Shown here in pieces: positions 15,264 to 59,710 of a DNA stretch of 64,000 nt; the first letter of the stretch is position 1; every line of letters begins with the position of its first letter. The notes beneath the pieces are model-generated. The model was not told the DNA's origin and did not search any database. It saw only the letters and a program-made list of their open reading frames with translations. The DNA comes from Protoeuglena noctilucae. Lineage: Eukaryota. The stretch is taken from positions 1 through 64,000 of the forward strand of contig OY253675.1 in assembly GCA_958009085.1 (NCBI GenBank), written 5' to 3'. The translations under genes were made by a program, and so were the position numbers.

Positions 15264-15463
15264 NNNNNNNNNNNNNNNNNNNNNNNNNNNNNNNNNNNNN
15301 NNNNNNNNNNNNNNNNNNNNNNNNNNNNNNNNNNNNNNNNNNNNNNNNNNNNNNNNNNNNNNNNNNNNNNNNNNNNNNNNNNNNNNNNNNNNNNNNNNNN
15401 NNNNNNNNNNNNNNNNNNNNNNNNNNNNNNNNNNNNNNNNNNNNNNNNNNNNNNNNNNNNNNN
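15264..15463. other. Assembly gap (200 N)
   Basis: Run of exactly 200 N. Confidence 1.
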
Positions 15464-38213: not shown

Positions 38214-41200
38214 CTATGCGGCTGCCTTCTTGCGACCCCTCTTCTCTCCCTTCTCTCTCCGATCCTTCCCACCGCTGCCACCCTTGCGCTTGCCCCCATC
38301 CCTCCCCTCCCCCATCTGCCGCTTGCCCCCATCCCCCCCATCACCCTTCGTCCGTTTGCCCCCATCTTTCCCCTTCCCCCGCCCCTCGCCCCTCTTCCGC
38401 TTTCGCTTCTCCTCCCCCCCTCCCCCGCCCTCCCCCTCCTCTCCCTGCCCATCCACCGCACGCATGTTGGCCTCCACCTGAGAGGGAAGAGAGAGAGCGT
38501 TTACTGAGAGATGATTAGTTTGGTGACATGCGACCAGCCACAGCAGGCAATCGGCTATAGACAATAAGCGACAGCATCCAATCAGCAACACGCAATCAGT
38601 GACAGCAGGCTGTCCGCCATACAGTGACACCCCACCCATCTCTCCCACCCCATCCCCTCACCAGCTCCGCCCAGTCCTCTGCCGCAGCCAGGGCCGCAAA
38701 GGGACTCCCCTTCTTACCACCACCACCGCCACCACCACCACCACCACCACCACCACCACCGCCCACATCGCCATCGCTCCCCTCCCCATCCTCGCCGTCA
38801 CTGCCGCCACCCTCAATGCGGATCATCGACGGCATGGGCGCATCGTCATCAATATCGATATCATCAATATCGTTATCGTTATCATCGGATGCCAGGGTCC
38901 CATTGGCCCCGTCTGCTGCGGGGGGGAGGGCGATGCGGAAATTGGTTACAGCATGCGGTGGCGATTGAGGGTGGGAGTGGGTGCGTGCGCATGGGGCTCG
39001 CAGATGCAACCATGCTACTTAGAACAGCGACCACGCTATCTAACAAGCAGACAGCATAGTAAGCATCAGAGCCAACTACTGCGTACCAAAGCTGCAGCCA
39101 TGTCTCCCCCACTCACCACCGCCCCTCTTTCTCGTCGCTTTGCCCCTCTTCTCCTTCCCCCCATCCCCCCCCACCTCCACCCCCTCCGCCATCACCCACT
39201 CCCCCTCACTCCCGCTCCCGCTGTCCCCGTCATCGTTCAGACCCTCCAGCTCCCCATCCCCCTCCACATCCTCACTCCCACTCGACCACTCCTCCTGAAC
39301 AGGCAACGGGTCATGAAACGGGATGTGTGAGTGTACGGTGTGGGTGGATGTGTATTTCTCGGTATGCAGCAGCTGCAGCAACGCGGCGAAACCACGCATC
39401 AACCCACATCAGACCATTGCCACTCCTGTTCCATACAACAAACTCTCACTTCTCCCCCTCGCCCCATACCCCCACTCCCCCCCTCACCCTCTCCATCACC
39501 CACTGTCCCAAGCCCACACACCCACACCCCCACACCCCTCCCTCCCTCACCTCCTCCCCCGCCCCCATCCCCTCGTGCTCCTCCTCCCTGGCAAGGAACG
39601 CATCCTCATCTTCCGAATCGCTGCCGGCTGCCGCCCGTCTTTTAACCTCCTGAGCTGCCGCGTGCCTGGCCTTCACGCGGTCCAGGTGATAGTACCTGGG
39701 GGGTGGTGAGGGAGGTGTTGATGACCATATAATAATATCATTGATATAGCCATGCATAATTATCATGATATAAATTTTCTTAAACACAAATTAAACCATC
39801 CCGCATACTTGTGGAAGTAGGGAACCGATGACAACGCCAACTAGTATGACCAATGACCAATACCAATACCAACACCAATAACACTTCATCTCACATATAT
39901 AAAACCCCATTCCAACTCTCGCCTGTGGAAGTAGAGGTCCTCGGGCGCGACGTCCGCCTCGGCCAGCGCGGCGAACACGCGCCCCACCGCCTGGCCCTTA
40001 GAGGCATTGCCTGCCCTCGATGCGAATGGGAGGGATGCGGCGGGTGCGGATGCCTTCGATTTGGATTTGGGTTTCTTTTTTGCGATCTTGTCGAGGAAGG
40101 CGGTCAACGTGAAGTCGCGGAGGGGGTCGCCCGCGTACACCACCTGGGGGGAGGAGAGGGGGCTATGAGTGGGGTATGGGTGGGTATGAGTGCATTGCAA
40201 TAAGTGCTTTACGGTAAGCACTGCCACCTCCGTGCACTTGGCCAACAACCCCACCCATCTCTACCCCTCGCCTGTTGCCCGGCCAGCACCAGCCACACCA
40301 TGCAGACACATGAAAACCCCACTCCGCAATTCACTATCAACAACCAACTCCACCACTCCCACTCCTATGACTCGCCTGTTGCCCCGCCAGCAGCGTGCGC
40401 GCCATGGCGGCCACGGATGGGTGCGTGTGCGATGCCAGCAGGCTCAGCTCCCAGGCGCAGCTGCGGTCCGCATTCGCATACCGGGGGTCCCTCTTTCGCA
40501 TGTCATAACCACCCTTCCTCGGCCACTGCCCGCGGCGCAAGGTGACGGCGGCAGCCGCACCACCGCTACTATCCGCGCTGGCACTCACGCCCGCACCCGC
40601 ACCCCCCCTCTCTGCCGCTCCGTCACCGTTTGCAGCATCCACAGTGTCCGTGTCATCTGTGTCACTGTCATTCACTCCATCCTCCCCATCGCTGCCCTCT
40701 CCCTTCTCAGTGTCGTCGCCATTGCTCTTGTCAACGCTGATGCGCTTGTTGCTTTTTGCACCACCACCATTACCCTTACCACCACCACCCCGCTTGCTCT
40801 TGCTCTTCCCACCATCTCCATCCCCATCCTCATCATCGCTCCCCCCATCATCCACATCCCTCACATCCTCCACCCCATCGTCATCGCTCCCCCCATCATC
40901 AATATCTCTCACATCCTCCACCTCGTCATCCATCCCCGCCTGCGTGCTGCTCGCCATTCCCCACAGCGCAGGCTTAGCCCGGAACAGCTCGCTGACCAGC
41001 AGCAGCGACCCGGCCGCAAACGCGGGGGGGGATGTTGATGCGACTTGCAGAAGGCGCTTGGCAAAGGCAGCCACGCGGGGGACTGGGAGGGTGGGGGAGA
41101 GAGGTTGCTGTGAGTAAGTGAGTGAGTTAGGGGAAGAGCAGAGTGGGTAACAGAGTGGGGTTGGCAAAGGCAGCCACGCGGGGGACTGGGGGGGTGGGGG

Positions 41201-44200
41201 GGGGGGAGAGAGAGAGTGGGCGTGGGAGTGAGTGAGGGAGTGAGTGAGGGAGTGAGTGAGTGAGTGACAAGAGAGAGAGAGAGAGAGTGAGTGAGTGTGG
41301 GAGGGAGTGAGTGAGTGAGTGAGTGAGGGAGTGAGGGAGGGAGAGGGAGTGAGTGAGTGAGGGAGAAAGTGAGGGAGGGAGAGGGGAAGGGGGGGTACAG
41401 CGTGAGGTTGGCAAAGGCAGCCACGCCGTCCCTCAGTGCCCAATGATAGTCAACTAGACAATGCAATTATCAACTATCCGCCCATCTATCGCCCCATCAC
41501 CATCTCACCCGACCCGTCATCCCTCAGCGCCCTGAACACCACCTCTTCTCTACTGTCATCACCTCTATCAATCACATTCCCATGTAACATACCCATGTAA
41601 CCCATGTCTCACCCGACACGTCGTCCTTGAGCGCCTTGAACACCAGCGCCAGGAACGCCGCCACCTTCTGCGACCCCGCGAGCCCCGGGGCCAAAAGGGT
41701 GCCGTACGCCGCTCGGAAGAATCGATCGTCGACCGCCGCCCTCGCAGCCGTAACGTGGTACAGCAGCGCCAGAGCCTGCACCGCCACCCCCAGCGATGGG
41801 GCGTGCGCCATGCGGTAGAGCGCGGGGGCGTGCGTTTCGATGAGCGGCTCGATGTCGGTGGGTGGGACGAAGGGGAACGCCCGGTTGACGCCCGTGAGTA
41901 GGGCCGAGAGGAGGCGGGCGTCCAGCTCACTCGAGGACTGGGGGAAGAGGGGTGGGAGGTGGTTGTTGATAGGAGAAGTGGTGTTAATATAGGGAGTGGT
42001 GTCCAGCTCTCTCGAGGACTGGGAGGGGTGGTTGGTTGTTTGATAGGGGGAGTGGTGTCGAGCTGACGTGGTGGCGCGGGGGTGAAGTTGGAGGTGGGGG
42101 CATTGTTGCAAAGCATTTCAGCATTATAGCCATGCATTCTTTGTGCTATCGCCACCAACACTCCCACCATCACCCCCACTCACCGCCGCTGCGTCCCTCC
42201 CCTCTTCTTCCTTCAACGCTCTCTTCGCCTCTGCCCCCTTCCTCCCCTTCTTCAACGCCGCCTCCTCCTTTTGTTTTTTCCTGTCTGCCGCGTGGCCCAC
42301 CGTGCCCTCGACAAGCATCTTGAACAACGCAAAGTAACAGTCGATCAACCGGTGGGCCAGCGAGGGGCCCTGGGGGGGGGGGAGAGTGGGTGGAGTGGAG
42401 GGGTGGGAAGGTGATGGAATGGGAGGGAGTGAGGGAGGGCTGACTATCTCGATCAGACCAGTCATGTTCACATACAGAATGACAAGCACGTTGTACCACC
42501 CCCTCTCACCTCCCCCTCCTTCTCCTTCTCCCTCTCCAGCACCATCTGGCTGAGGAACACGACCGCGTAGTACCTGGCGCGGTCCTGCAGGTTGCGCCTA
42601 AACAAGAAGCGCTCCACCTCCCGCACCACGACCGCCTTCATGCGTGGGTGCTCGGTCAGCAGGCATTGCAGGAAGTAAGCAGCACGGGAAGCAACCTTGC
42701 GCACTGGGGGGTGGGAGGGGTGGGGTGGGGGGATTGGGGGTGAGCAGGGCACGGGATGATGCGGCATTGCGCTCACCGATCAGTCACTACCAATCACACA
42801 CATTACTCTCACATACATCCACAACCCCATCTCCCCTCACCCGGATCTCCCAGCTTGTTGACCACCATGGCCAGCACCCTGGCCTCCCCCTCCGGTTTGG
42901 TCGACAGCAGCTCGTATGCCGCACGCAGCGCCCTCTCCCTCACATACTCCAGGTTGTCCATCAAACAAGCATCCAGTGCGGACAGGAAGGCGTAGAAGCG
43001 GGAGCGGAGGGAGTCCTCGAATGCCCAGTAGAGACACAGGCGGTCGCCGTCCTTGCCGGGAGGGAGAAGGGCTGGGGGGGGTGGGGGTGGGGGTAGCGGT
43101 GAGGGTGGCAGTGGGGGTGGCAGTGAAGGTGGCAGTGAAGGTGGCAGTTACGGTACATGCTCAGGTGCAAGGCACAACCATCATCCCACCCAAAAGAGAG
43201 CACTGCACACGACACCCATACTACCCAGCCGTCCCCCTCAGCTCCTCAGCGCCATGACCACAGTAGTAACATTACCATACTAACATACCCATAGCACATC
43301 TCTCACATAGGTCTCTCTGCTCCAGCGTCGTCAGCCTCCGGTCCGGCAGAAGCACGGACTTGAAGAGCTCCCGCAGCGCATCAATCGACTGGCCGACCAC
43401 CGCGCGGCCGCCCTTGGACTTGGCTACCCACGAAATCAGCTCGTCCAACGCGCGAAGATTCGCGATCGCGCGCTCCTGGACCACAAGGGCCGACGCCGCG
43501 AGGCGGTCGCGGGTTGTCCCTGCCTTGCGCACCGCCACCAGCCACCGCGCGTCGGACGGGTTCGTGCGCCACATGGAACGCTCGAACGCGCGCGCCTCGT
43601 TCGTAAGCAAACGCTCGCCGCGCTCCCGCGCAGCAGCGACCGCCTCCGCGGGCGCGGGGGACCCCGGAGACGTGGACGCGGCGACGCCCGCCGCGGACTC
43701 CGCCGCGCGCGCCGCCTCGAACCAGCTCGCCGGCTCGTCGCGGGGGAGGATTGATTTCGCCTTCGGGAGGTCCGCGGGAGGCCCGGAGGTGCCTCCCTCG
43801 GCGTCCCCAGCACCGCCCGCCAGCAGGGAGCCCCCCTGCGCGCCGGGGCGCTGGCCCACGGACTCTCTCCAGCCCCGGGACCGTATGGGATCCAGAGACT
43901 TGCGATCAGACCCGTTGCCGGCGTCCTGCGGGCGCGAGAACGCGCGGGGCGGAAGGCCGTGAACAAGGGCGGCTTTAAAGAGCTCCTCTAGAGCGTCGCC
44001 GCGGTATGAAAGCGAAATGCACGTACCAAGACGAGCGCATACAGTAATAGAATCTGCGCAAGCAAGAACCGCGCGCGTCCGCGCAGTTCGCGGGTCGCAA
44101 GGCCGCCGACTGCGCCGACGCGTGATGCGGGCCCCGGCGCGGCGGTCGCCTCGCGCAGAGCGCCGCCATCGCTTCCACCGCACCTTACTCCATCTCCCGC

Positions 44201-44492
44201 CCTCGCGATCGCCACCCCGGCCTCGTCCCCTGCCTCCCCGGCCCCCAAACCCGCCCCTGCCCCTCCCCCCAACCTGCCCCCTCCCCCGCCCCTCGCCGCG
44301 CCCCGCCCCGCGCCCTCCCGACGCGCCCCTCCCGCCACGCTCCCCCTCCCCGCCTCGCTTCCGCCCCGCCCCGGGCGCGAAATCGCTGAACTCGTGCCCC
44401 GCCCCGGACGGCCCCCCCAAACCCAGCTCCCGCGTCATCCGCGCCACCTCCGCCGACAGCGCGGCGGTGTCGAGACTCTTTTCGCCTTTCAT
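38214..44492 (-). CDS. NOC1: NOC1/MAK21/CEBPZ ribosome biogenesis protein (CBF domain), multi-exon
   Basis: GTTRDRLAA, HPRMKAVVVREVE, RARYYAVVFLSQ, RLLSALLTGVNRAFPF, PRVAAFAKRLLQ, YDMRKRDPRYANA...WEL...HTHPSV, YAGDPLRDFTLTAFLDK, SPFAALAAAEDW; basic C-terminal tail. Confidence 0.92.
41227..41365. repeat. Intronic (GAGT)n/(GA)n microsatellite
   Basis: Degenerate GAGT/GAGG tandem run in a NOC1 intron. Confidence 0.85.
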
Positions 44493-44796
44493 GTTTACGC
44501 AATACTACCTACGAACGCCGGGACGCGGCAACGGTGGTTTGGGGGCTTCACGCCTGCCCCCTTCTCTTTGCGACGCGTCACCAGTCGCGCGCCGCCCTTT
44601 CCGCGGCCGGGTTGCGCGCGCGGCCGCAGCTTTTCTGCACGCCCATCGTTGGCGCTTGCCGCACAGCGTTCTCGTCGCTGTGAGTGCCAGTCTCAGTCGT
44701 TTCACTTCAACGCCGGCCGGCCTCCCCAACCCTCCAACACAATCCCGCATCCCTCCCCATCTACAAGATGCGATCTGCGATCTTTTCCAGTATTCC

Positions 44797-47700
44797 TCAC
44801 GCGCCGTGCACAATCAGGTCAAGACCGGTGGCCTCAGCCCCGATCCGCGCCACCCCCCCCACGGGCGACGGCTGCCCCTTGCATGAGGGCTGGAACTTGG
44901 CCCCCGACAGCGGGCACTGCACGAAAGGCGCTCCCCGGTAGATGGGCGTGTAGGTGAGGCAGCACACGTCAAAGGGCGTGCGTGGGTCGTAGTCCAGCTC
45001 GATGTCGTCCTTGAGGCCCGCCTTGTCGCACGCCAGGAGCACCTGCTTGGCCTGGGGGGGGGATGGGGAGGGGTGGGGTGAGGGGGAGGAGAGGTGGGTT
45101 GGGATGGAGAGGGACCTACCTTCACATCACCACCACACATGCACCCCACCCCACTACACATACCCACACCCCCCATCTCCCTCACCTGCACCGCAAACTT
45201 GTCCCCCGGCCCCAAGTCGACCAGCCTCCTGGCCATGTGCGAGGCCGTGCCGTAGCACTTCATCTTGAAGAGCACCGTCATGGCCGCGCGCAGGGAGAGG
45301 GCCTCGTGCACGGGCGCCATGCCGCAGTGGGTGAAGTAGCACGACAGCTCAGCCGAGCGCTTGGGGTCCTTGTCAGAGACCTCCTTGCGCTTCAGCTCCA
45401 CTCTGGATAAAATGGGGAGAGGGTGTGTGAGTGTGCGTTACCACCACTCCACTCTAAACCCACACACCCCCCCACACATACACCCACCCACACACACATC
45501 TCTCACCTCATGGCCACCACGTAGTCCCTGCACGTCCTCATCGCGTCGTGGATCTCCGCCATCTCCCCCGCATCCTTGGCCGCCAGCATCGTGCACGCGA
45601 GCAGACACCCGTTGAACGCGCGGAGAGCATCCGTGAACCGACCGGCCGTCACCATGCCCTGCGCCTCGGCGATGCGCGCCACGATTGCCGTGAGGGAGTA
45701 GGCGGGGCGGGGGCCGGCGGGCGGCTGCGTCTCGGCTGCGTCGGACCAGTCCCGGTCGATAGCCAAAGCGAAGGGCGGCAGGCCGGGGAGCGTGGCGGCC
45801 ACCGCGTGCGACGCAGCAACAACGTCCAGGAACAGCTGCTTGTAGGGAGCGAAGTGGGATACCCCACATTGCCGGTGCAGCACGCGCATGGCCGAGGCGG
45901 GGTCGTTAGCAGCCACGTGCTCGCAGGGGGTGCGGGCGGTCTGCCCCCAGCGCCGGGAGTGGGGCACGCCGGGTGCGGGGGGGATGAAGGCCTGTGCGGC
46001 CATGGCGGCGGTGGGGAGGGCCTGCGTGTCGTCTGCCTCGTGGCCGCCCAGGTCCAAAGCGCCCAGGTCCAGGTCGTCATCGCCCCAGGCGCCTGGGGGG
46101 GATGGGGTTGGGGGGCTGAGTGCTGGGGTGTAGGTGGGGGTGGCAGTGGGGGTGGCAGTGAGGGTGGCGGTGGGGGCAGCAGTGGGGGTAGCAGTGCGGG
46201 TGATAGTAACAATAATAAGGCGAGAGGGGTGGTGCTCACAATAGGCAGTCGCAACCCCATCACAGGCAGTCCTGCTACCAACCACCGCATCCCCCCCTCC
46301 CTCACCTCCCTCCAGCGCCCTCTCCACCTCCCCCATCCCCGCCCCCGCATCCCCGCCCCTCGACGCCGTGGTGTCTGACGCCGCAACGCCAGTGCCGGTG
46401 CCAGTGCCGGTGCCAGTGTCGAGGTCCTCCTCCCCGCCCCACGCGTCCGCCCCCTCCCCCGGCCCCTCCATCACCACCCCCGCATTCACGGGACGGGAGC
46501 CGGGGACCTGGTCGAACATGCCGCGCTGTGGGGAGGGAGAAGGCGTGACTGGTGAGTGGAGATGTGTGTGTGTTTATGACAGACCTGGTTGAGCGCGCCA
46601 CGCTGCATTGAGGAAAGTCATGAATGAGGGAGAGTGAGCCATCGCATCCCACCCACCCCACCCCATGCCACACCCCCATCCCTCCCCTCCGCACACCCTC
46701 ACACCCACCACCGCATCCCCACCCCATCACCCCGCATCCCCCAACCCCACACCCCCCCCTTATCCGCCAATCACCTTCGCCGCCGCGGACGGCCACGGCG
46801 CCCCGTCCGCTTTGACCGGGGCGGGCGGCCACAGCAGCGCCGCCCCTTCCACACCCCTGGGCAGTCGCACGTCGCCCCCCGCCCCCTCCCCCCCGTCCAC
46901 CCCCTTGCCGCCCTCCGCCCGCAGCTCCTGCGCCAGCACTGCCTCCTCGTCCCCCATGCCGTGCGTGTGGGCGGTGAGGTACGCCAGCTGCAGCTGCCCC
47001 GCCTCCCGCAGGACGCGCACGCGGTCCATGGCGTCGCCCAGGTAACAGGCGCAGTGGAAGCGGGAGAGGGGGTCGTTCCTGGGAATGGGAGGTGGAGTGG
47101 GGTGAGGTGAGAGGGTGTGTATGGTGGCATGGTTAGTGGGTGTTGTTTGTTGTTATGAGGTCTCATGTGACGGGCGCGGTGGAAGCGGGAGTGGGCGTTG
47201 CCTTTGCCTTTGCCTGCATCCATCCACACCCCCCATCTCCCTCACCTCCTCCACAGCTCTTTCACCATCCCTATCACCATCACCATCGCCACTGACCTCA
47301 CTCATCATATGTAATATTATCCACCACTCACCTCAGCTCCGCCATCTTCCGCATCTCCCCCACACCACCATCACCAACACTATCACTACCCCACTCAACA
47401 TCACTACCCCAAGCACTATCACCATCACCATCCCCCACTCGCCTCAGCTCCGCCATCTTCCTCATCTTCTCCAGCTTCCCCCTCTCCCCCGTCAGCACAT
47501 ACAGGAACGCCAGCCGGTCGTAGTCCTTGGTCTTCTGGCACGCGTACTCCACCACCTGGGAGATGGGGGGAAAGATGTTGTTATAGAGAGATAGTGAGAG
47601 TTTTTGGTCTTCTGGCACGCGTACTCCACCACCTGGATGAGAGATGAGGGGAGGGGAGGGGCACTGAAGGAGAGATGAAAGTTGTTGAGAAGGGTCGGCG

Positions 47701-50700
47701 GAGCACGTTTGGATAGATACTCAACACACTTGCAATCCACGGCATCACCACCACCGCAGACCACCACCACTACCCCTCCATCACTCCACCACCCCTCACC
47801 TGCAAGTGCCCCAGCCGCAGCGCTTGTTGTCCCACTCTCACTACCGCTCTCACCACCACCACCACCACCACCCCTCTCTCTATAAATCAAATCCATCGAT
47901 CTCCCCTCACCTGCAAGTGCCCCAGCCTCAGCGCTTGTTGTCCCAGCTCCCTCCACGTCGCCGCGTCGTCCATCTCCTGCGCCGCCTCCAGCGCCGCCTC
48001 GACGTTGCCAGAACCCAGCGCCAGGGTGAAGCGGCGCCTGGGATGGGATAAAGGGGGTGGTGGTGGTGGTTGGGGGTGTGGTGGGGTCGAGCAGTGGCTG
48101 GGGTGAAGTCATACCAACAATGACGAATACAAATACTGTTTCCTAATTAGCACATTGCTTCTCCTTCACCTGGGGTCCTTGACCATGTGCATGGCCACTT
48201 CCGGGAACCCCTTCGCCTGCAGGTACGCCACCATGGCATCCCCCACCAATGCCCCCGACTGGATCATCGCCAGCACCTGGGGATACTCTTTTCGCATCAA
48301 ATGCAGCTTGAAGGCGAACTCGGAGGCGTTGACGGTCAGGTGCAGCACGCGGCCCTCGCGGTCCAGGGCCGTGACCTAAAGGGGGTGAGGGGTGCGGTGA
48401 GGGTGAGGGGTGCGGTGAGGTGAGGGGTGGGAAAGGGAGGTGATGGTGTGTGCGTGACGGAGATCACTATCGCAGCAACCTGCAACACCACACTCACATC
48501 CCCAACCACACCACGCTCACTCTAACCACTCCCACTCCACCCCTCACCTGCCCCCCCTGCACCGACACCAGGTAGAGCGGCAATCTACCACTCCCACTAC
48601 CCACCCCTCACCTGCCCCCCCTGCACCGACACCAGGTAGAGCGGCGCGTCGAGCGTGCGCACGATGCCGCTGTCGCCATTGGGCAGGCAGTACTTCATGT
48701 GGTTGAGCGTGGTGTACAGCAGAGCACCGGACGCGTCGAATGCGGCCGACTTGACGCGGATGGTTTCGTGGACGGTGACGGACGACTTGAGCTTGCGGTC
48801 GGCGATCACCACCGCGTGCTTGGACAGCAGCGCCACCAGCGACATGTCGGGGGACCAGACCACGTACTTGACCTGAGAAGGGGAGGTGGGGAGATGGGGA
48901 GAGGTGAGTAACTGTGTATGTGTTTGTGTTTCGTCACTCCCTCTCAACCATCTCACCTGCGCCGCCGCCACCTCCCCCACCACCGCCCGCGTCTGCAGGT
49001 CGAGCATCGCCACCCGGTCCTCGCCCCTCAGCAGCACCGCCCCCGTCCCCGCGTAAAAGATCGAATCGGGCGCCAACCCCGCCGGCACCGCCACCTTCTT
49101 CGTAACCTCGTTCAGCAGGTTCTTGATCAGCAGCGCGTTCTGGGTTCGATCCAGCACGGCAAAGCGGTTGCGCGCCACGAAGGCCGCCCCGCTGCCCGTG
49201 CCCCGCCGGGCCTCCACCGACGCCTCACCCTTGGTCCCGGCGTCGCGGGGGATCACTGGGGGGAGTGGCAGGGGGAGTGGGGGGGTAGTGAGGGTAGCAG
49301 TGAGGGTGGCAGTCGAGGTGGCAACAGTGGGGTTGGTAGTAGGGGTGCTAGTCGGCTTGACAGTAAGGGCGGCACTTCTTGTGCAGTTCGTACAACCCCA
49401 TCGCTACACCCCACCCCTCCTTCCCCCTCCTCTCCCCCCCTCACTGTACAGCTCGTACGACCCCCTATTACTGCTTCCCATCTCATCACCACCCTTCCCC
49501 CCCCCCCCCCTCACCGTACAGCTCGTACGACCCCCCCTCGGCGGTGCTGGTGAGCAGGACGGCGTTCTCGGCTGGGTTATACCCCAAATGCCGGGGTGCC
49601 GCGTTGAGCGTCGACCCCGAGGGCCGCTTGAGGGCCAGCAAGGGAGTGGACCTCCTTGAAGCCAGGTCGTACAGCCGCAGGTATCGATCCTTTACGTAGA
49701 AGAGCTTCGATCCGTGCAGGGAGTGCGCGGGCCTCTCCCGTTCGAGTTTGAACACGATGATGCCGCTGTCGTGGCCGGCGGCCAGCAGGTTGATCTCCGG
49801 GTGGGCGGCGAGGATCCAGAAGCGGTCATGCTCGCGGCTGCGATGGGGGGGAGGGTGTGTGTGTGTGAGTGAGTGAGTGTGTGTGTGTGAGTGGGGTGGT
49901 GGTGAGTGAGATGCAGAAGCGGTCGTGCTTGCGGCTGCGATAGGTGGGGGGTGGGGTGTGTGCGTGAGTGGCAGTGGGGGTGGTGAAGGTAGTGTTGAGT
50001 GGGTACGGGTAGAAGAGCTCATCACCCGACCCCCCCCCCCCTTCGTCACTCTCACCGCTAACCCACACACAGTCACCCCCACTCTCTCCCTCACCGGAAC
50101 GTCTGCACCCCCGTGCGCTTGGACATGTCCCAGACGCGCACGGTGCGGTCCTCCGAGTTGGACACGATCAAATCCTGCTTGGCGTGGAACATGACGCAGG
50201 AGACGTTGTTGGTGTGGCCGCGCAGCGTGTCCACCTCCCAGGCCTTGCTCTCGTTCATGCGCCACAGCTTGACCTGGGGGGGGGATGGGGGATGGGTGTA
50301 TGGGACCCGGGCAGGGTTGGATGAACGGGGATGGCGGCTGTGCACATGCTAAACAGTGATCATGTTTGTCACATCATCATTGCTGCCGATACCTTCTCAT
50401 TGCACGCCCCCTCACCAGCAGTCAACACCCCTTCTCTCCCATCATCCCTCACCTGCCTGTCGTCCGCCCCCGACACCAGCAGCGGCAGCGAGGGGTGGAA
50501 GTGCACCCAGTTGACCCCCCTCTCGTGTCCTTCAAGCACGTACTTGACCATCGCCTCGGAGCTGCCAAAGAGGTCCGCGCCCATCGAGGGCAGGCCGGGG
50601 AAGGGGCGGTCCTCGCTGTGAAGGGGGGAGGGGATGAAGGGGGGTGAACAGATCGGGAGTGGGGGGCGGGGTCAGGGTATCATCCACATCGACACCCACA

Positions 50701-52445
50701 CTCAGACTTACCCCCGTTACACCCATTCGCACACCCACGCCCTCACCGCACACCTCCAAAGCACACCCAAACCCCCGCCGCACCCACACCATATACCCAT
50801 CCACTGCACACCCACCGCTCACGCGCACCCCCCACCCCCTCCGCACACCCCCCATCTCACCTGGCGTGCCCCCCCGGCGTGGGCGACTTGCGCCTGAGCG
50901 CCGACACATCCCACACGCGGATGGTCTGGTCGAGGGAGGCGCTGGCCACGATGTCTTCCTTGGGGTGGAATCGGGCGCACATGACGTAGTGGTTGTGGCC
51001 GGTCAGGACGGCGATGCAGGCGCGGGACTGCCAGTTCCATATGCGAATGGTCTGGGGGGGAGGGAGGGTGAGGGTGGGGTGTTAATAACCAATGCGGATG
51101 GTCTGGGGGTGGGGTGGGTGAGGTGAGAGGGGTGAGTAAGATATGTGAGTGAGGGACTGCCAGTTCCAGATGCAGATGGTCTGAGAATGGGGTGGGTGGG
51201 GTGTGACGTGAGAGGGACTGCCAGTTCCAAATGCGGAGTGGGGATGGGGTACGGTGGGACATGTGAATGATGGACTGCTAGTAACAAATGCGGGTACCAC
51301 CATCCCCAGTTGTCAGTACCAACACCTCGTCTCCCTCATCTCATCTCACCTGGTCGTCCGAGCACGATAGCACCCAGGGGCTCTCGTGGTGGAACTGCAC
51401 GGTGCGGATGTAGTCGAGGTGACCCACCAGCGTGAAGATGCACCGGCGCTGCTGGTAGTTCCAGACCTTGACCTGAGGGGGAGAGATGGAGGCGTGGGGT
51501 GTGGGTGTCAGGTGTGAGCAGTTCGGATGATGCCATGGGGAGCTGAGGGGCGGGAGGTGAGGGCAGGGTCAAGCATCGGCATCGTCCATGCGCTTCTGCT
51601 ATCCATCGACGCTCTGACGCTGATCCTCAGCCCCTGGGTCCCCCACCTTGTAGTCATCCCCGCCAGACACAAACAGCGGCTGCGTGCCGTGGAAGTCCAC
51701 GCTCCGGACGGGGCCCTCGTGCTGCGGGCGGGAAAACAAAGGGCCGCGGGTCGGTGTATTCACAAGCACTGAACCACAACCGACCATGTCGACTCGTGTC
51801 GCTCACAAAGCCCCTCATCGACCCTGCATCTCGCGCGAACCCCGTCCGACCATCGCCCGTCCATTGCACTTAACGCACCTCGTCGAAGCGATCGATCAGC
51901 GTCCCCATGCGGTAGTCCCAGAGCTGTATCATGCCCGTGTGAAGGGACGCAAGGATCCACGGCCTGCGGGCACCGCGCGGCGATACATCGCTCCGGAAGC
52001 TGAGCTTTGACATAACTAACATCAGCTGCGACGGAAGCGGGGTCGCGCGAAACGCAGCGCGCGCGATGGGGCCAGAGGGACGCTCGGACACCCGATGCAG
52101 CGGCCTGGGGCGCCGGGACGGCCACTTGGGGGACCAGACCGCAGCTGAGCGGAGCTTCACGAGCATCTACGTCCGATGGGAGCAAGCATCGGGCGCTTCG
52201 TCCCCCACGCCGGCCAGGGTGCGTCCCCGGGCAACGCATGCGCGTGGGACCCATGCCGGGCCCCTGGGGCCGCGCCCGGGGCCCTCTCGCTGGCCAGCGC
52301 GCGAGATGCGAGTCACGAGCGAGATCGGATGGCGGATGCCGACCATCGCGGCTCCCCACAGCGGCGTGGGGGCCCGGCCTCACCGTTTGGGGTGGAACGC
52401 GCATCCCTTGACGCGGTTGCTCTTCGTCTCGAACTTTGTCAGCAT
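44797..52445 (-). CDS. COPA: Coatomer subunit alpha, multi-exon
   Basis: [112 protein letters not shown]. Confidence 0.97.
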
Positions 52446-52902: not shown

Positions 52903-55843
<2,941 letters not shown>

Positions 55844-56169: not shown

Positions 56170-59100
56170 ATGACTGGGGAAGAGTGAGTGCCCCGCCAAG
56201 CGATGGATCCCGCGCGCTGGGCCACCTGCGTTCCCCGCGGGGGCATGTGGCGCGAGATGCTTAGATGATACGTCCCTGGTCGCTGCAGGAACGCCGGGGA
56301 GGCTGGCACCCGGAAGCGGAGGACGCGGTTCGCGGACCCCACGCCGGCGCCCACCGAGCCCCCGGAGGCGGCGACGCCCAGCGGCACGGCCCTGGTCACG
56401 GGTGGCCAGAGTGCAGGAGCAACGGAGGCGCCGACTCCGGCGACGGCGGAGCGTCCCTCCGGGACGGAGGGCGCGGCGACCCCGGCGTCGGGCAACGGGG
56501 CGCCGTCTGCCGAGGGGCAGAAGAAGCGGAAGCGGAGGAAGGGCTGGGGAGAGCCTACCAACAATCCAATCAACATGCCCACGATCCTCGGCACGGGCGC
56601 GCTGCCGAACCTCCCGCACGTGAGTCGGGGTCACAGACGCGCCCTTCCCAGCCGCGGAGTGCCCCGCGAGGCTCCGATTTTGTTTGCGATGTATTCTCAA
56701 CTCCATTTTCTTTATCATCTGTGCTTCCCTCGCCTCCGGGCGTGCGCCGATCGCTTGGCGCTCGCCCCGCAGTCGTTCCCGTGCTTCACGTCCGTTCCCT
56801 CCCGCTTTCCCCTCAGATCCCCGGCGCCTTCATGGCGCACGTGGGTCCTTCCTCTTCCGGCAACGACTTGGTGGCCGCGATGCTGGGCGCGGGCAGCTCT
56901 GCCGCTGTGGTCCCGGATTTCACGGGCGAGACGCACGCCATGAAGCAGAGCCGCAAGGTGTACGTGGGCAACGTGCCCATGCACTGGTGACTGACGCGCG
57001 ATGTGTAGAAGCAGAGCCGCAAGGTGTACGTGCGCGACGCAGCCTTGGTTGTTGGTTGCTGAGAAGCAGCGGACCTGCAACGAGCGTCGCTGTGTCCGTC
57101 TCCCCACCATACATCGACCCTTGCTTACCCTTCCTCCCTTTAAAAGTAGCACCTATCGTTTGAATAAACGATGCCTTGACTCCCCACCATCCATCCACCT
57201 TCCCCCCCCCCCCCCCCCCCCCGCAGCACGGTGAACGAGCTGATGAACTGGTCGTCGGAGCAGGTGCTCAAGGCATGTCCCACCATCATGGAGGTGACCA
57301 AGGGGGCCATCCCCGTCATCAATGGCATGGTGGCGGGGGACAAGGGGTACGCCTTCATTGAGTGTGCGTGTGCCGAGGTCGCCACCATCGCCGTCAACTT
57401 GCTGGACGGCAAGACCTTCCGGTGAGGAGCAGGGACGCGATTCGCTGATTCCAATTCTCTTTCTCACACTCTTTCCTTTCCATCGCAACCTCTCACGTGC
57501 ACCACCCCACCCCCACCCCACCTCTCTACCCCTCACTGCTGTCGCTACCAGCCCCTCACATGACCCACCCCACCTCCCTCTCTCCCCCCAGTGGCAGCAT
57601 CCTGCGCATGCGTCGCCCCAAGGACTACATCCCAGGGTGGGAGCCCGACCACGTCATCCTCACGCGCCTCATCCCGGGGTACCGCATCCCCATCTCCAGG
57701 GAGGTGAGAGGAAGGGGCACGGCTTTGACTGTGTGCGTGCTGGGTTACTGAGTGATAAGCAGCATCCCCATCTCCAGGGAGGTGAGGGAGAGGGAGAGGG
57801 AGACAGTGCAGGGATGGGTGCAAAGCGAGAGGTCGCATCCTGACGCTACCACCCCTCCGCAGCCACTCTCCTTGCCTCTACTGACCCACTCCAATCCCCT
57901 CACCCACTCCATCCCTCCACCCTACTCCCCGTCACCCACTCCACCCCCCCACTCCCCCAAACCCCCCCCCAGGTCCAATGCGACAGCGAGGTCCCCCCCT
58001 CCCCCACGCGCCTGTATGTGGGCAACCTGCACCCGGTCGTATCCGAGGCAGAACTGAAGGACTTCTTCCACAAATACGCCGAGCTGCGCGCGTTCAAGCT
58101 TATCAAGAAGCACCCGGACGACGAGCTGTCCATGGGCTACGCCTTCGCGCAATTCGAATTCCCCAGCGACTTTCCGGCCGGGGTGCTGGGGCTGCGTGGG
58201 GTGCAGTTCATGGGCAAGCCCATCGCGGTGTTCCCCGCGGACCTTGACCCGGAGATTCTCCCAAAGATCACCGACGAGGTGGCGCAGGGGCGGTCCGGGC
58301 TGGACGTGCTGCCAGAGTCGGTGCCAGAGAGGCCCCGGGAGGAGTGGTACCGGCCGCTCGAGTGGGTCAAGCCCCTCAGCGAGGCGCCGACGAGGATACT
58401 CGAGATATCCGGGTGCATATCGGGTGAGTGGGAGTTGGGTGGCTGGTGGCATGGGTGGTAGTATGGGTATGAGTGGGCTGGTTGGTGTTGTCTGGGTGCG
58501 TCGCAGAGTCGATGGAGGAGCTGCATGTCACATATCACACATCGCAACCCATCTCACTTCTTGTGCTTTGTCGCAGAGTCGATGGAGGAGCTGAACGACG
58601 AGGATGCGTGCGCGCGCATTGAAGAGGACGTGCGTGCCGAGTGCGAAAGGTTTGGGCTCACGTGGTCATCGCACCTGACGCGCTTGCCGGGGGCGGCGGC
58701 GGGGGCTGCGGGGGAGGCGGCAAAGGCGGAGGGCGGGGCGGAGGGGGCGGCAAAGACGGAGGGTGATGCGGCGGGGGCGGGGACGGAGGTGAAGGTGGAG
58801 GGGGAGTTGAAAGCGGAGGGCGCGGGGGGTGCGGGGGAGGGGGAGAATGGGATGGGAGCGGCGGGGGAGGCGGGGGCGGGTGTGGTGAAAGACGAGGGTG
58901 GGAATTTGGGAACGGAGCCTAAGGGGGAATCGAAGGGTGTACCTGCGGACGAGGGCCACATTGAGGAAGTGCGGGAGGAGGAGGGTGCACAGGGGGCGGC
59001 TGTGAAGGAAGAGGGGAATGGCGATGCGGGTCGCGAGGGTGGGGATGGCGATGGGGACGAGGATGAGGATGGGGATGGGGAGGGGGGGCCTAAGAAGCTG

Positions 59101-59710
59101 TACGGTTTGGGCAAGGTGTACGTGGAGTTTGCGAGGAAGGAGACGGCCATGGTGGCGCTGTTCCGGTGAGGGGCGTGTGGTTCGGGGGGCATGTGCGTCG
59201 ACTTGACACGTCGACTTGACATGACGTGTGGGGGCGTGGATGCGGGTCATGGTGGCTATCAACGCAGCTGTAGTCGATGACCTTGGTTGGCTTGTTAACT
59301 AGTGTCCTGTTGCAACCTGCCCCGTCTGCCACCTCGCGACCCCTTCGCCCGCCTCACGCCCTCCTCGCTTGTGCGCCCGCAGCCTGTTCGGGCGCTCCTA
59401 CGACGGCCGCCTGCTGACGGCGCGTTACTTCCCGGTCAAGACCTACCAGCGGCAGTTCAACAAGGGGATCCTGCCCACCACCCTGGCCCAGAAGATCCAG
59501 CTGGCCATCGCCGTGCAGGCCCGCATCACCGAGGCGCTGTACCACGACGACGAGCCGGGGAGGGCGCGCGTGCCCCTCGTGCCTCCCAACCGCCGGACTT
59601 TCTTCTGGGACACGGCAGGGGGCCGCGTCACGGACCAGGACGCCGTCCGGACCGCCATCGAGTTCTCGCGGCAGCAGCAGCTCCTGCCGGCGCCGCCGGG
59701 GAGGAGGTAG
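56170..59710 (+). CDS. U2AF large-subunit (U2AF65)-like splicing factor: ULM, two RRMs, UHM; no RS domain
   Basis: KRKRRKGWG (ULM-like); RKVYVGNVP...KGYAFIE...LDGKTFRGSILRMRRPKDY; RLYVGNL...MGYAFAQF; PTRIL...IEEDVRAECERFG...GLGKVYVEF...LFGRSYDGRLLTARYF. Confidence 0.85.

Follow-up and report, generated by a model that had tools for sequence, protein, structure and literature searches.

The first 64,000 nucleotides (nt) of a contig of Protoeuglena noctilucae (assembly GCA_958009085.1, contig OY253675.1, positions 1 to 64,000, the start of contig C8; hereafter the window) raise the question whether introns can be patched from the spliced messenger RNA (mRNA) of their own gene. Within introns of two minus-strand genes, a CBF/Mak21 gene (Noc1/CEBPZ-like) and a coatomer alpha gene (COPA-like), the original prediction had noticed three short strings, here called (a), (b) and (c), that resembled joined exons, and had attributed them either to RNA- or complementary DNA (cDNA)-templated patching of breaks inside introns or to microhomology deletion. 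All three strings are present on the minus strand at the positions given below, and none of them copies spliced mRNA. They lie in introns that contain what we call echoes: direct DNA copies of an exon end with the adjoining donor, or of an acceptor with the adjoining exon start. The echoes themselves are genuine, and the process behind them is very probably one at the DNA level that is not mRNA-templated.

41408 to 41441, minus strand: string (a), in which an older donor echo (~41441-41426) has probably been fused to a truncated acceptor echo (41426-41408) through a CGTG microhomology
47717 to 47735, minus strand: string (b), a gapped 15/18 likeness to the spliced join, at chance level
39805 to 39820, minus strand: string (c), a decayed donor echo with 11 nt of exact exon end (39820-39810)

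The genome (26.3 Mb in 27 contigs, G+C content ~66%), presumably that of an alga, is matched in marine metagenomes and metatranscriptomes. In addition to the window, which contains a run of 200 N at 15264-15463, 960 kb from nine contigs were fetched, giving a total of 1.02 Mb or 3.9% of the genome. Introns were predicted with a purpose-written self-training gene finder, for which one of two seed genes had been entered one base out of frame, and the predictions were checked against the COPA-like gene, whose introns had been left out of training; 16 of its 17 introns were recovered and none was falsely predicted. From 1,642 predicted introns we kept 1,350 in 282 genes (flanking exons of at least 40 nt and a clear coding score) and dropped 292. 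GC donors were predicted in 299 of the 1,350 introns (22%), one of which, at 47442, is confirmed by RNA. RNA joints were taken from contigs of runs X9 and X10, and all statements on splicing hold among the joints listed for them. For the COPA-like gene these comprise at least 13 joints, every one at predicted sites.

Copies of the upstream exon end (donor echoes) were found in 61 of the 1,350 introns versus 2 of 6,750 foreign pairs, and copies of the downstream exon start (acceptor echoes) in 28 introns versus none of 6,750 foreign pairs, while no inverted echo occurred in any of the 1,350. The upstream-exon copies sit in the 5′ part of the intron and the downstream-exon copies in the 3′ part. 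Where donor echoes reach the junction, 47 of 50 continue with G[TC]GA, and acceptor echoes are preceded by CAG in 18 of 18 cases. The exon part of an echo measures 14–60 nt (median 27, with a query length limited to 60), and the median distance from its source is 97 nt on the donor side and 113 nt on the acceptor side. Long introns are favoured, with donor echoes in 34 and acceptor echoes in 22 of the 123 introns of at least 250 nt. Echoes also cluster by gene (158 pairs versus 66), and three of the ten sampled blocks contain none.

The introns that hold the three strings illustrate this arrangement:

41083 to 41612, minus strand: intron holding (a), 530 nt, CBF/Mak21 gene, frame open across the join
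41509 to 41541, minus strand: donor echo in the intron of (a), last 33 nt of the upstream exon (28/33), then GTGAG at 41508
41161 to 41188, minus strand: acceptor echo in the intron of (a), CAG and the first 25 nt of the downstream exon (25/25)
47556 to 47910, minus strand: intron holding (b), 355 nt, COPA-like gene, spliced at its outermost sites, joint in RNA of X9 and X10
47800 to 47834, minus strand: donor echo in the intron of (b), 34/35, then GTGAG at 47799
47604 to 47635, minus strand: acceptor echo in the intron of (b), CAG and the first 29 nt of the downstream exon (29/29)
39696 to 39922, minus strand: intron holding (c), 227 nt, GC-AG, CBF/Mak21 gene, open-frame gene model with no RNA joint among those listed
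44797 to 52445, minus strand: COPA-like coding span, open frame, 17 introns, six of them with echoes at a score of at least 14

Of the echo-bearing COPA introns, five are among the listed RNA joints, each of them spliced from its outermost donor to its outermost acceptor. Since splicing takes place at the outer sites, the echoes are tolerated. At 41613, next to the intron of (a), the RNA contigs of X9 and X10 come to an end, and the joint of this intron is absent among the rows listed.

Host introns have a G-rich 5′ arm and a C-rich 3′ arm (polarised introns), as seen also in the intron of (a). Sixty polarised introns fold at −0.359 kcal/mol per nt versus −0.337 for shuffles (n = 60), i.e., ~7% more stably, and ~70% of their predicted base pairs connect the two intron halves. 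Four-fold degenerate sites are 61–68% G before the donors and 53–59% C after the acceptors of polarised introns and about even beside other introns; the arm skew thus extends into the adjoining coding sequence. Blocks C1:500001, C7:400001 and C16:200001 have short introns (median 102–114 nt), a weak skew and no echoes, and blocks in C8, C3, C5 and C12 have intron medians of 163–185 nt, two intron regimes within one genome. A GTGGCAGT/ACTGCCAC minisatellite recurs in introns of the window (43090-43150, 46125-46205, 49290-49340) and is oriented with the arms (36 versus 4 and 44 versus 17); the DNA depth of run X5 climbs to ~240–270 in the bins of 43090-43150 and 46125-46205.

The exon part of the echoes is 94% identical to the exon, and the differences are distributed unevenly over codon positions 1, 2 and 3 (32, 47 and 102, respectively). 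The ratio of four-fold to zero-fold differences was 3.4 (gene bootstrap confidence interval 2.2–4.9) and reached 4.1–5.1 in stricter sets; counting one echo per intron side, differences affected 54 of 425 four-fold and 56 of 1,603 zero-fold sites, compared with a ratio of 1.9 for a simulated neutral copy. The synonymous excess resides in C↔G changes (25/393 versus 7/838) and in sites that are A or T in the exon and G or C in the echo. Non-synonymous differences look random (BLOSUM −0.54 versus −0.62, P = 0.36) and all five indels break the frame, the pattern that decay following insertion should leave. The periods of donor echoes are random modulo 3, and the frame remains open from the echo donor in only 2 of 56 cases, which rules out the echo as a coding isoform and, together with the random non-synonymous changes and the frame-breaking indels, indicates that echoes are not coding now. 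Differences private to an echo are also biased to third positions (29/50); we discounted this as proof, since sequential copying from a changing exon yields the same pattern. Near position 74875 of contig C8, the exon has a Phe codon where its two echoes have Leu and Ile, with four changes in that codon and one other change in 24 nt, which looks like amino-acid-level variation among alleles. The allele-like divergence of the echoes is not explained by neutral duplication.

The tract adjoining the echo behaves differently from the exon part. Of 76 pairs, only 9 have tracts that align at z > 3, and over the eight bases next to the donor ungapped identity sinks from >0.9 to ~0.5 (background 0.35–0.4). 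The ungapped extension past the donor has a median of 6.5 nt versus 5 nt for unrelated introns and is shorter than 15 nt in 47 of the 56 donor echoes. In 15 of the 56, echo donor and true donor differ within their first five bases, and eight of these 15 pair a consensus echo donor with a non-consensus true donor. In echo-free polarised introns, G[TC]GAG has a density of 8.1 per kb in 5′ arms versus 0.3 per kb in 3′ arms.

These observations would fit a mechanism in which a break occurs in a low-complexity intron arm and the broken end, beginning with a G[TC]GAG-like or ending with a CCCAG-like motif, pairs with a template at the latter's real splice site. Some 14–60 nt of exon would then be copied before release and rejoining, as in synthesis-dependent strand annealing (SDSA) and repair-mediated duplication, and the template would often be a diverged allele on the homologous chromosome. 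Priming by splice motifs would account for the direct orientation, the sorting by arm, the short reach into the tract and the consensus echo donors, and the synonymous excess would arise because the template, the other allele, stayed coding since its split from the present exon. A later microhomology deletion, bringing a donor echo of older date together with an acceptor echo, is the most likely source of string (a). With the allelic template included, we regard the chances of this full mechanism as evenly balanced. The broader proposal that splice-site motifs prime break repair from the homologous chromosome and that long introns grow from both ends by allele patches is put forward tentatively, at somewhat less than even weight. 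A paralogue was rejected as the template, as no paralogous source was found for either of two diverged echoes tested with a search that skips common words.

Several observations weigh against an allelic, motif-primed origin. No such allele has been seen: across 14.3 kb, the variants listed for four environmental runs amount to 2 positions without a single indel, and a metagenome scan at 80 loci yielded no relative with >76% protein identity, so that present diversity looks low. G/C-to-A/T changes alone give a ratio of 1.9–2.6, which is compatible with a neutral copy. Zero-fold differences are fewer within 12 nt of the junction (12/491 versus 49/960), a hint of constraint or conversion. In nine of the 56 donor echoes the copy runs on for at least 15 nt into the tract, as it would in a plain tandem duplicate, and their exon divergence equals that of the others (0.073 versus 0.072); residual tract similarity is evident from an identity of 0.66 versus 0.34 at position +6 and from z > 2 in 20 of 76 pairs. 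In 3′ arms there is little enrichment of acceptor-like primers (2.8 versus 1.6 per kb), and the internal GTGAG motifs may be decayed echoes. In introns with donor echoes the downstream exon starts with G in 31 of 48 cases versus 105 of 225 (p = 0.027, one of three tests). Finally, the introns themselves rest on a gene finder that was checked on one gene only.

The alternative that survives best is plain tandem duplication in cis, by slippage or unequal sister exchange, of the exon end and intron start, followed by fast turnover of the tract and by drift of the exon or its replacement through recombination with other alleles. Near-perfect duplicates of the whole unit exist (extensions of 100, 121 and 146 nt), the residual tract similarity and the equal exon divergence of long- and short-extension echoes are what it predicts, and cis duplication with subsequent allelic exchange of the exon would produce much the same pattern as copying from an allele, a further point against the latter. 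However, a neutral copy predicts a four-fold to zero-fold ratio near 2, compared with the observed 3.4–5.1, several echoes with perfect exon parts of 20–44 nt have tracts that align like unrelated ones, and the echo donors shift towards the consensus. Given the ratio, the tracts and the donors, cis duplication would fit only with subsequent allelic exchange or with synonymous change at an unusual speed, and we consider it unlikely.

It is also conceivable that echoes are old and kept by selection, whether for a role in splicing or because they get back into the exon by gene conversion or repeat-mediated deletion. The synonymous bias, the intact echo donors and the scarcity of differences near the junction, which counts against allelic copying as well, would all agree with constraint. 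Yet the non-synonymous differences are not conservative, every indel disrupts the frame, neither the periods nor the open frames (2/56) are those of coding sequence, and the outer sites are the ones used at the RNA joints listed. This makes selection a rather improbable explanation of the echoes.

The idea with which the locus was first approached, that intron breaks are mended with spliced mRNA or cDNA as the template and leave copies of the junction, was examined in all 1,350 introns. For the nulls, a single exon was exchanged each time, which keeps plain echoes in the null; an own-junction score was set aside because plain echoes inflate it (the 17 for the intron of (b) is its donor echo). 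Precise junction copies (8 + 8 nt, at most one mismatch per side) numbered 0 of 1,350, with 0.1 expected, and among eight settings in all the looser ones remained at the null (e.g., 10 versus 12.3 and 8 versus 8.6 expected). A scan for chimeras at any offset and four thresholds found them at the null rate (e.g., 40 versus 40.2 expected) and none collinear with mRNA. The bases past the echoes do not track the other exon (61 versus 56.3, P = 0.26, and 19 versus 18.7, P = 0.52). Thus no scan gave an excess of precise junction copies, and the search for own junction k-mers against a null, which the original prediction had proposed as its check, showed no enrichment in the sampled 3.9% of the genome; junction-copy events rarer than ~1 in 450 introns would escape these scans. 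The other route put forward at the outset, in which microhomology joins a donor echo to an acceptor echo, suits (a) and does not define a class (8 versus 6.3 expected).

The three strings agree with this outcome. In (a), the two halves do meet at a shared CGTG, as had been claimed, but the string is not the mRNA join, since the 15 nt spanning that join are absent. The right half (41426-41408) reproduces the downstream exon at 19/19 positions, starting with exon base 7, and shares with the acceptor echo at 41185-41161 the same terminal exon base and a similar tail beyond it (P ~0.015), which is why a microhomology fusion fits; the shared end point taken alone may also be compatible with (a) having seeded the acceptor echo. 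The left half matches the upstream exon end at 15 of 20 positions including CGTG, in a stretch picked by eye, whereas the best of 1,344 foreign exon ends reaches 14/20; against the donor echo it scores 13/16 (foreign best 12/16). It is borderline in a uniform scan of 53 truncated echoes (p = 0.024). A real fusion of two echoes is the probable reading of (a), chance is a somewhat unlikely one, and an RNA origin is very unlikely. For (b), the 15/18 with one gap had been counted correctly, but such a score occurs at the rate of chance: the same geometry was found in 2 of 759 introns with ~1.4 expected, and foreign junction probes score at least 15/18 in 2–3 of 256 introns. In (c), the junction reading outscores the consensus donor GTGA by one base only, and the string is a decayed donor echo; among 67 such echoes, three lean to the junction, 63 to the donor and one is a tie. 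As junction copies, (b) and (c) are at chance level by these statistics. In the intron of (b), one 11-nt match prompted us to consider hairpin template switching and terminal inverted repeats, which were rejected in 256 introns.

What speaks for patching from mRNA is that (a) and (b) are both located at the G-rich/C-rich switch of their introns, that donor echoes outnumber acceptor echoes 2:1, that downstream exon starts show a slight G excess, and that RNA-templated repair exists in human cells (PMC12065846). Junction-like matches are, however, not enriched at arm switches (22 versus 22.5–23.7 expected in 254 introns), and to the absence of precise copies and collinear chimeras and the structure of (a), which lacks 15 nt and has its end point and tail in common with an acceptor echo, it must be added that echoes contain intronic splice-site bases. 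Moreover, the scar known from human cells is, in the accessible text of that study, the deletion of a whole intron and not an insertion within an intron that is kept (PMC12065846). Patching from mRNA is therefore highly improbable, and the germ-line trace of mRNA-templated repair, as first posed, is not there.

Introners are families of similar introns found across genes, with element-specific terminal inverted repeats. If the introns were mobile elements of this kind, echoes would be long target-site duplications, and the stereotyped ends as well as the G-rich and C-rich arms, which resemble inverted repeats, would be accounted for. But intron-specific inverted similarity of the arms exceeded z > 3 in only 1 of 256 introns, a BLAST hit in another gene was obtained for only 14 of the 1,350 introns, and the inserted stretch would amount to half an intron, so that this origin is just as improbable. 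An assembly artefact, in which two haplotypes were concatenated and which would indeed produce allele-like tandem copies, is the least credible explanation, because DNA contigs of another study (X5 records 6, 12 and 13) span echo introns with no differences and no gaps. The same holds for the strings, which are not assembly errors, since these independent environmental contigs (records 6, 7 and 12) cover (a), (b) and (c) with no differences; record 7 extends only ~28 nt beyond the fusion point of (a), where the bridging rule is 31 nt.

The two host genes were assigned by homology. The exon upstream of the intron of (a) matches PF03914 (E 6e-5) and yeast Mak21 (E 1e-16), and exons near the intron of (b) contain PF04053 and PF23953. 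For the exon downstream of (a), a weak match to Noc4 (E 0.15) was the sole PDB result, and this PDB search did not establish from homologues the conservation of the five codons missing in (a). The CBF/Mak21 gene further contains an exonic 48-nt coding tandem repeat (40830-40935, minus strand) whose unit encodes an acidic stretch of 16 residues and contains a GTGAG. The first intron of the COPA-like gene (51964-52383, minus strand; 420 nt) is GC-rich and unpolarised; it was missed by the gene finder and is confirmed by RNA. Two more intron-rich, echo-bearing genes lie on the plus strand at 52903-55843 and ~56200-59700, which may encode a MYST acetyltransferase and a U2AF large-subunit-like protein, respectively.

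The echoes bear on how introns lengthen and how intron ends get rewritten. For annotation of genes and for assemblers they are a pitfall as well, as they place perfect decoy splice sites ~100 nt from the real ones. If they stem from diverged alleles, they would provide a record of sex or hybridisation in a microbial eukaryote without a population sample, and a count of repair events from the homologue. Each echo would then be the fossil of a vanished or unsampled allele, and introns would archive past outcrossing of lineages ~10% apart at silent sites, readable from one haploid assembly. No published account of such exon-end echoes was found in the literature searched, which excludes most subscription journals.

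Among known systems, introners differ from the introns studied here, for which hits between genes were rare (14/1,350, in 3.9% of the genome and with hits not checked singly) and the inverted similarity to an intron's own arm was no higher than that to other introns. Human introns bridged by G-triplets and C-triplets, whose G-rich 5′ and C-rich 3′ ends are able to pair and require this pairing for splicing (Lin et al. 2016, PMC4691745), resemble the host introns in having these two kinds of ends; the host introns, too, are more stable than shuffles. This likeness covers the host introns only, and the accessible part of that account, which concerns human introns, does not mention exon-end copies. 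Tandem genomic duplication has been described as a route of intron gain (Yenerall and Zhou 2012, PMC3443670), and there, as here, splice-site sequence is duplicated. Unlike in that model, from which we deduce the order of a downstream-exon copy followed by an upstream-exon copy, the order is reversed here and old introns grow. When human cells repair double-strand breaks on an RNA template, the scar is a precise deletion of the whole intron, often of consecutive introns, and the process depends on transcription and on a reverse-transcribing polymerase (Jalan et al. 2025, PMC12065846). Likeness to this system, as far as its accessible text goes, is limited to the idea of an intron break with a spliced template on which the original prediction was based; it differs in that none of the 1,350 introns contains a precise junction copy, and a joined, intron-less form was not found among the DNA joints listed.

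Microhomology-mediated deletion in introns, which is imprecise (Farlow et al. 2011, PMC3020277), is a closer match for string (a). The identical motif of 1–6 bp at the join is present in (a) as the 4-nt CGTG, the left half of the string being borderline, and the join lies near, not at, the splice point. In contrast to the deletions described in the available part of that study, (a) joins two echoes within an intron that is kept, and it is a single borderline case. The closest parallel to the echoes themselves is provided by the repair-mediated duplications of vertebrates, which are local copies of at least 50 bp (the detection limit) at a mean distance of ~1.2 kb, for which SDSA with a template possibly on the homologous chromosome was proposed, and which may include exon pieces and splice sites and are in some cases chimeric (Pace et al. 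2009, PMC2671141). Marks of the class are insertion at an unrelated site instead of a tandem repeat of the whole unit, an orthologue with an empty site, and SDSA hallmarks at the breakpoints. Echoes are likewise short, local and near their source, with an exon piece and a splice site. They are distinct from these duplications, as portrayed in the accessible text, in their median length of 27 nt, mostly below the 50-bp limit, in their distance of ~100 nt, and in being anchored on the splice site of their own intron, sorted by arm and divergent with a synonymous bias (PMC2671141). The process proposed for the echoes would work like such repair-mediated duplication, and the echoes may belong to this class. 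The RNA patch as originally posed is not supported; the echoes may instead stem from repair that used another version of the gene.

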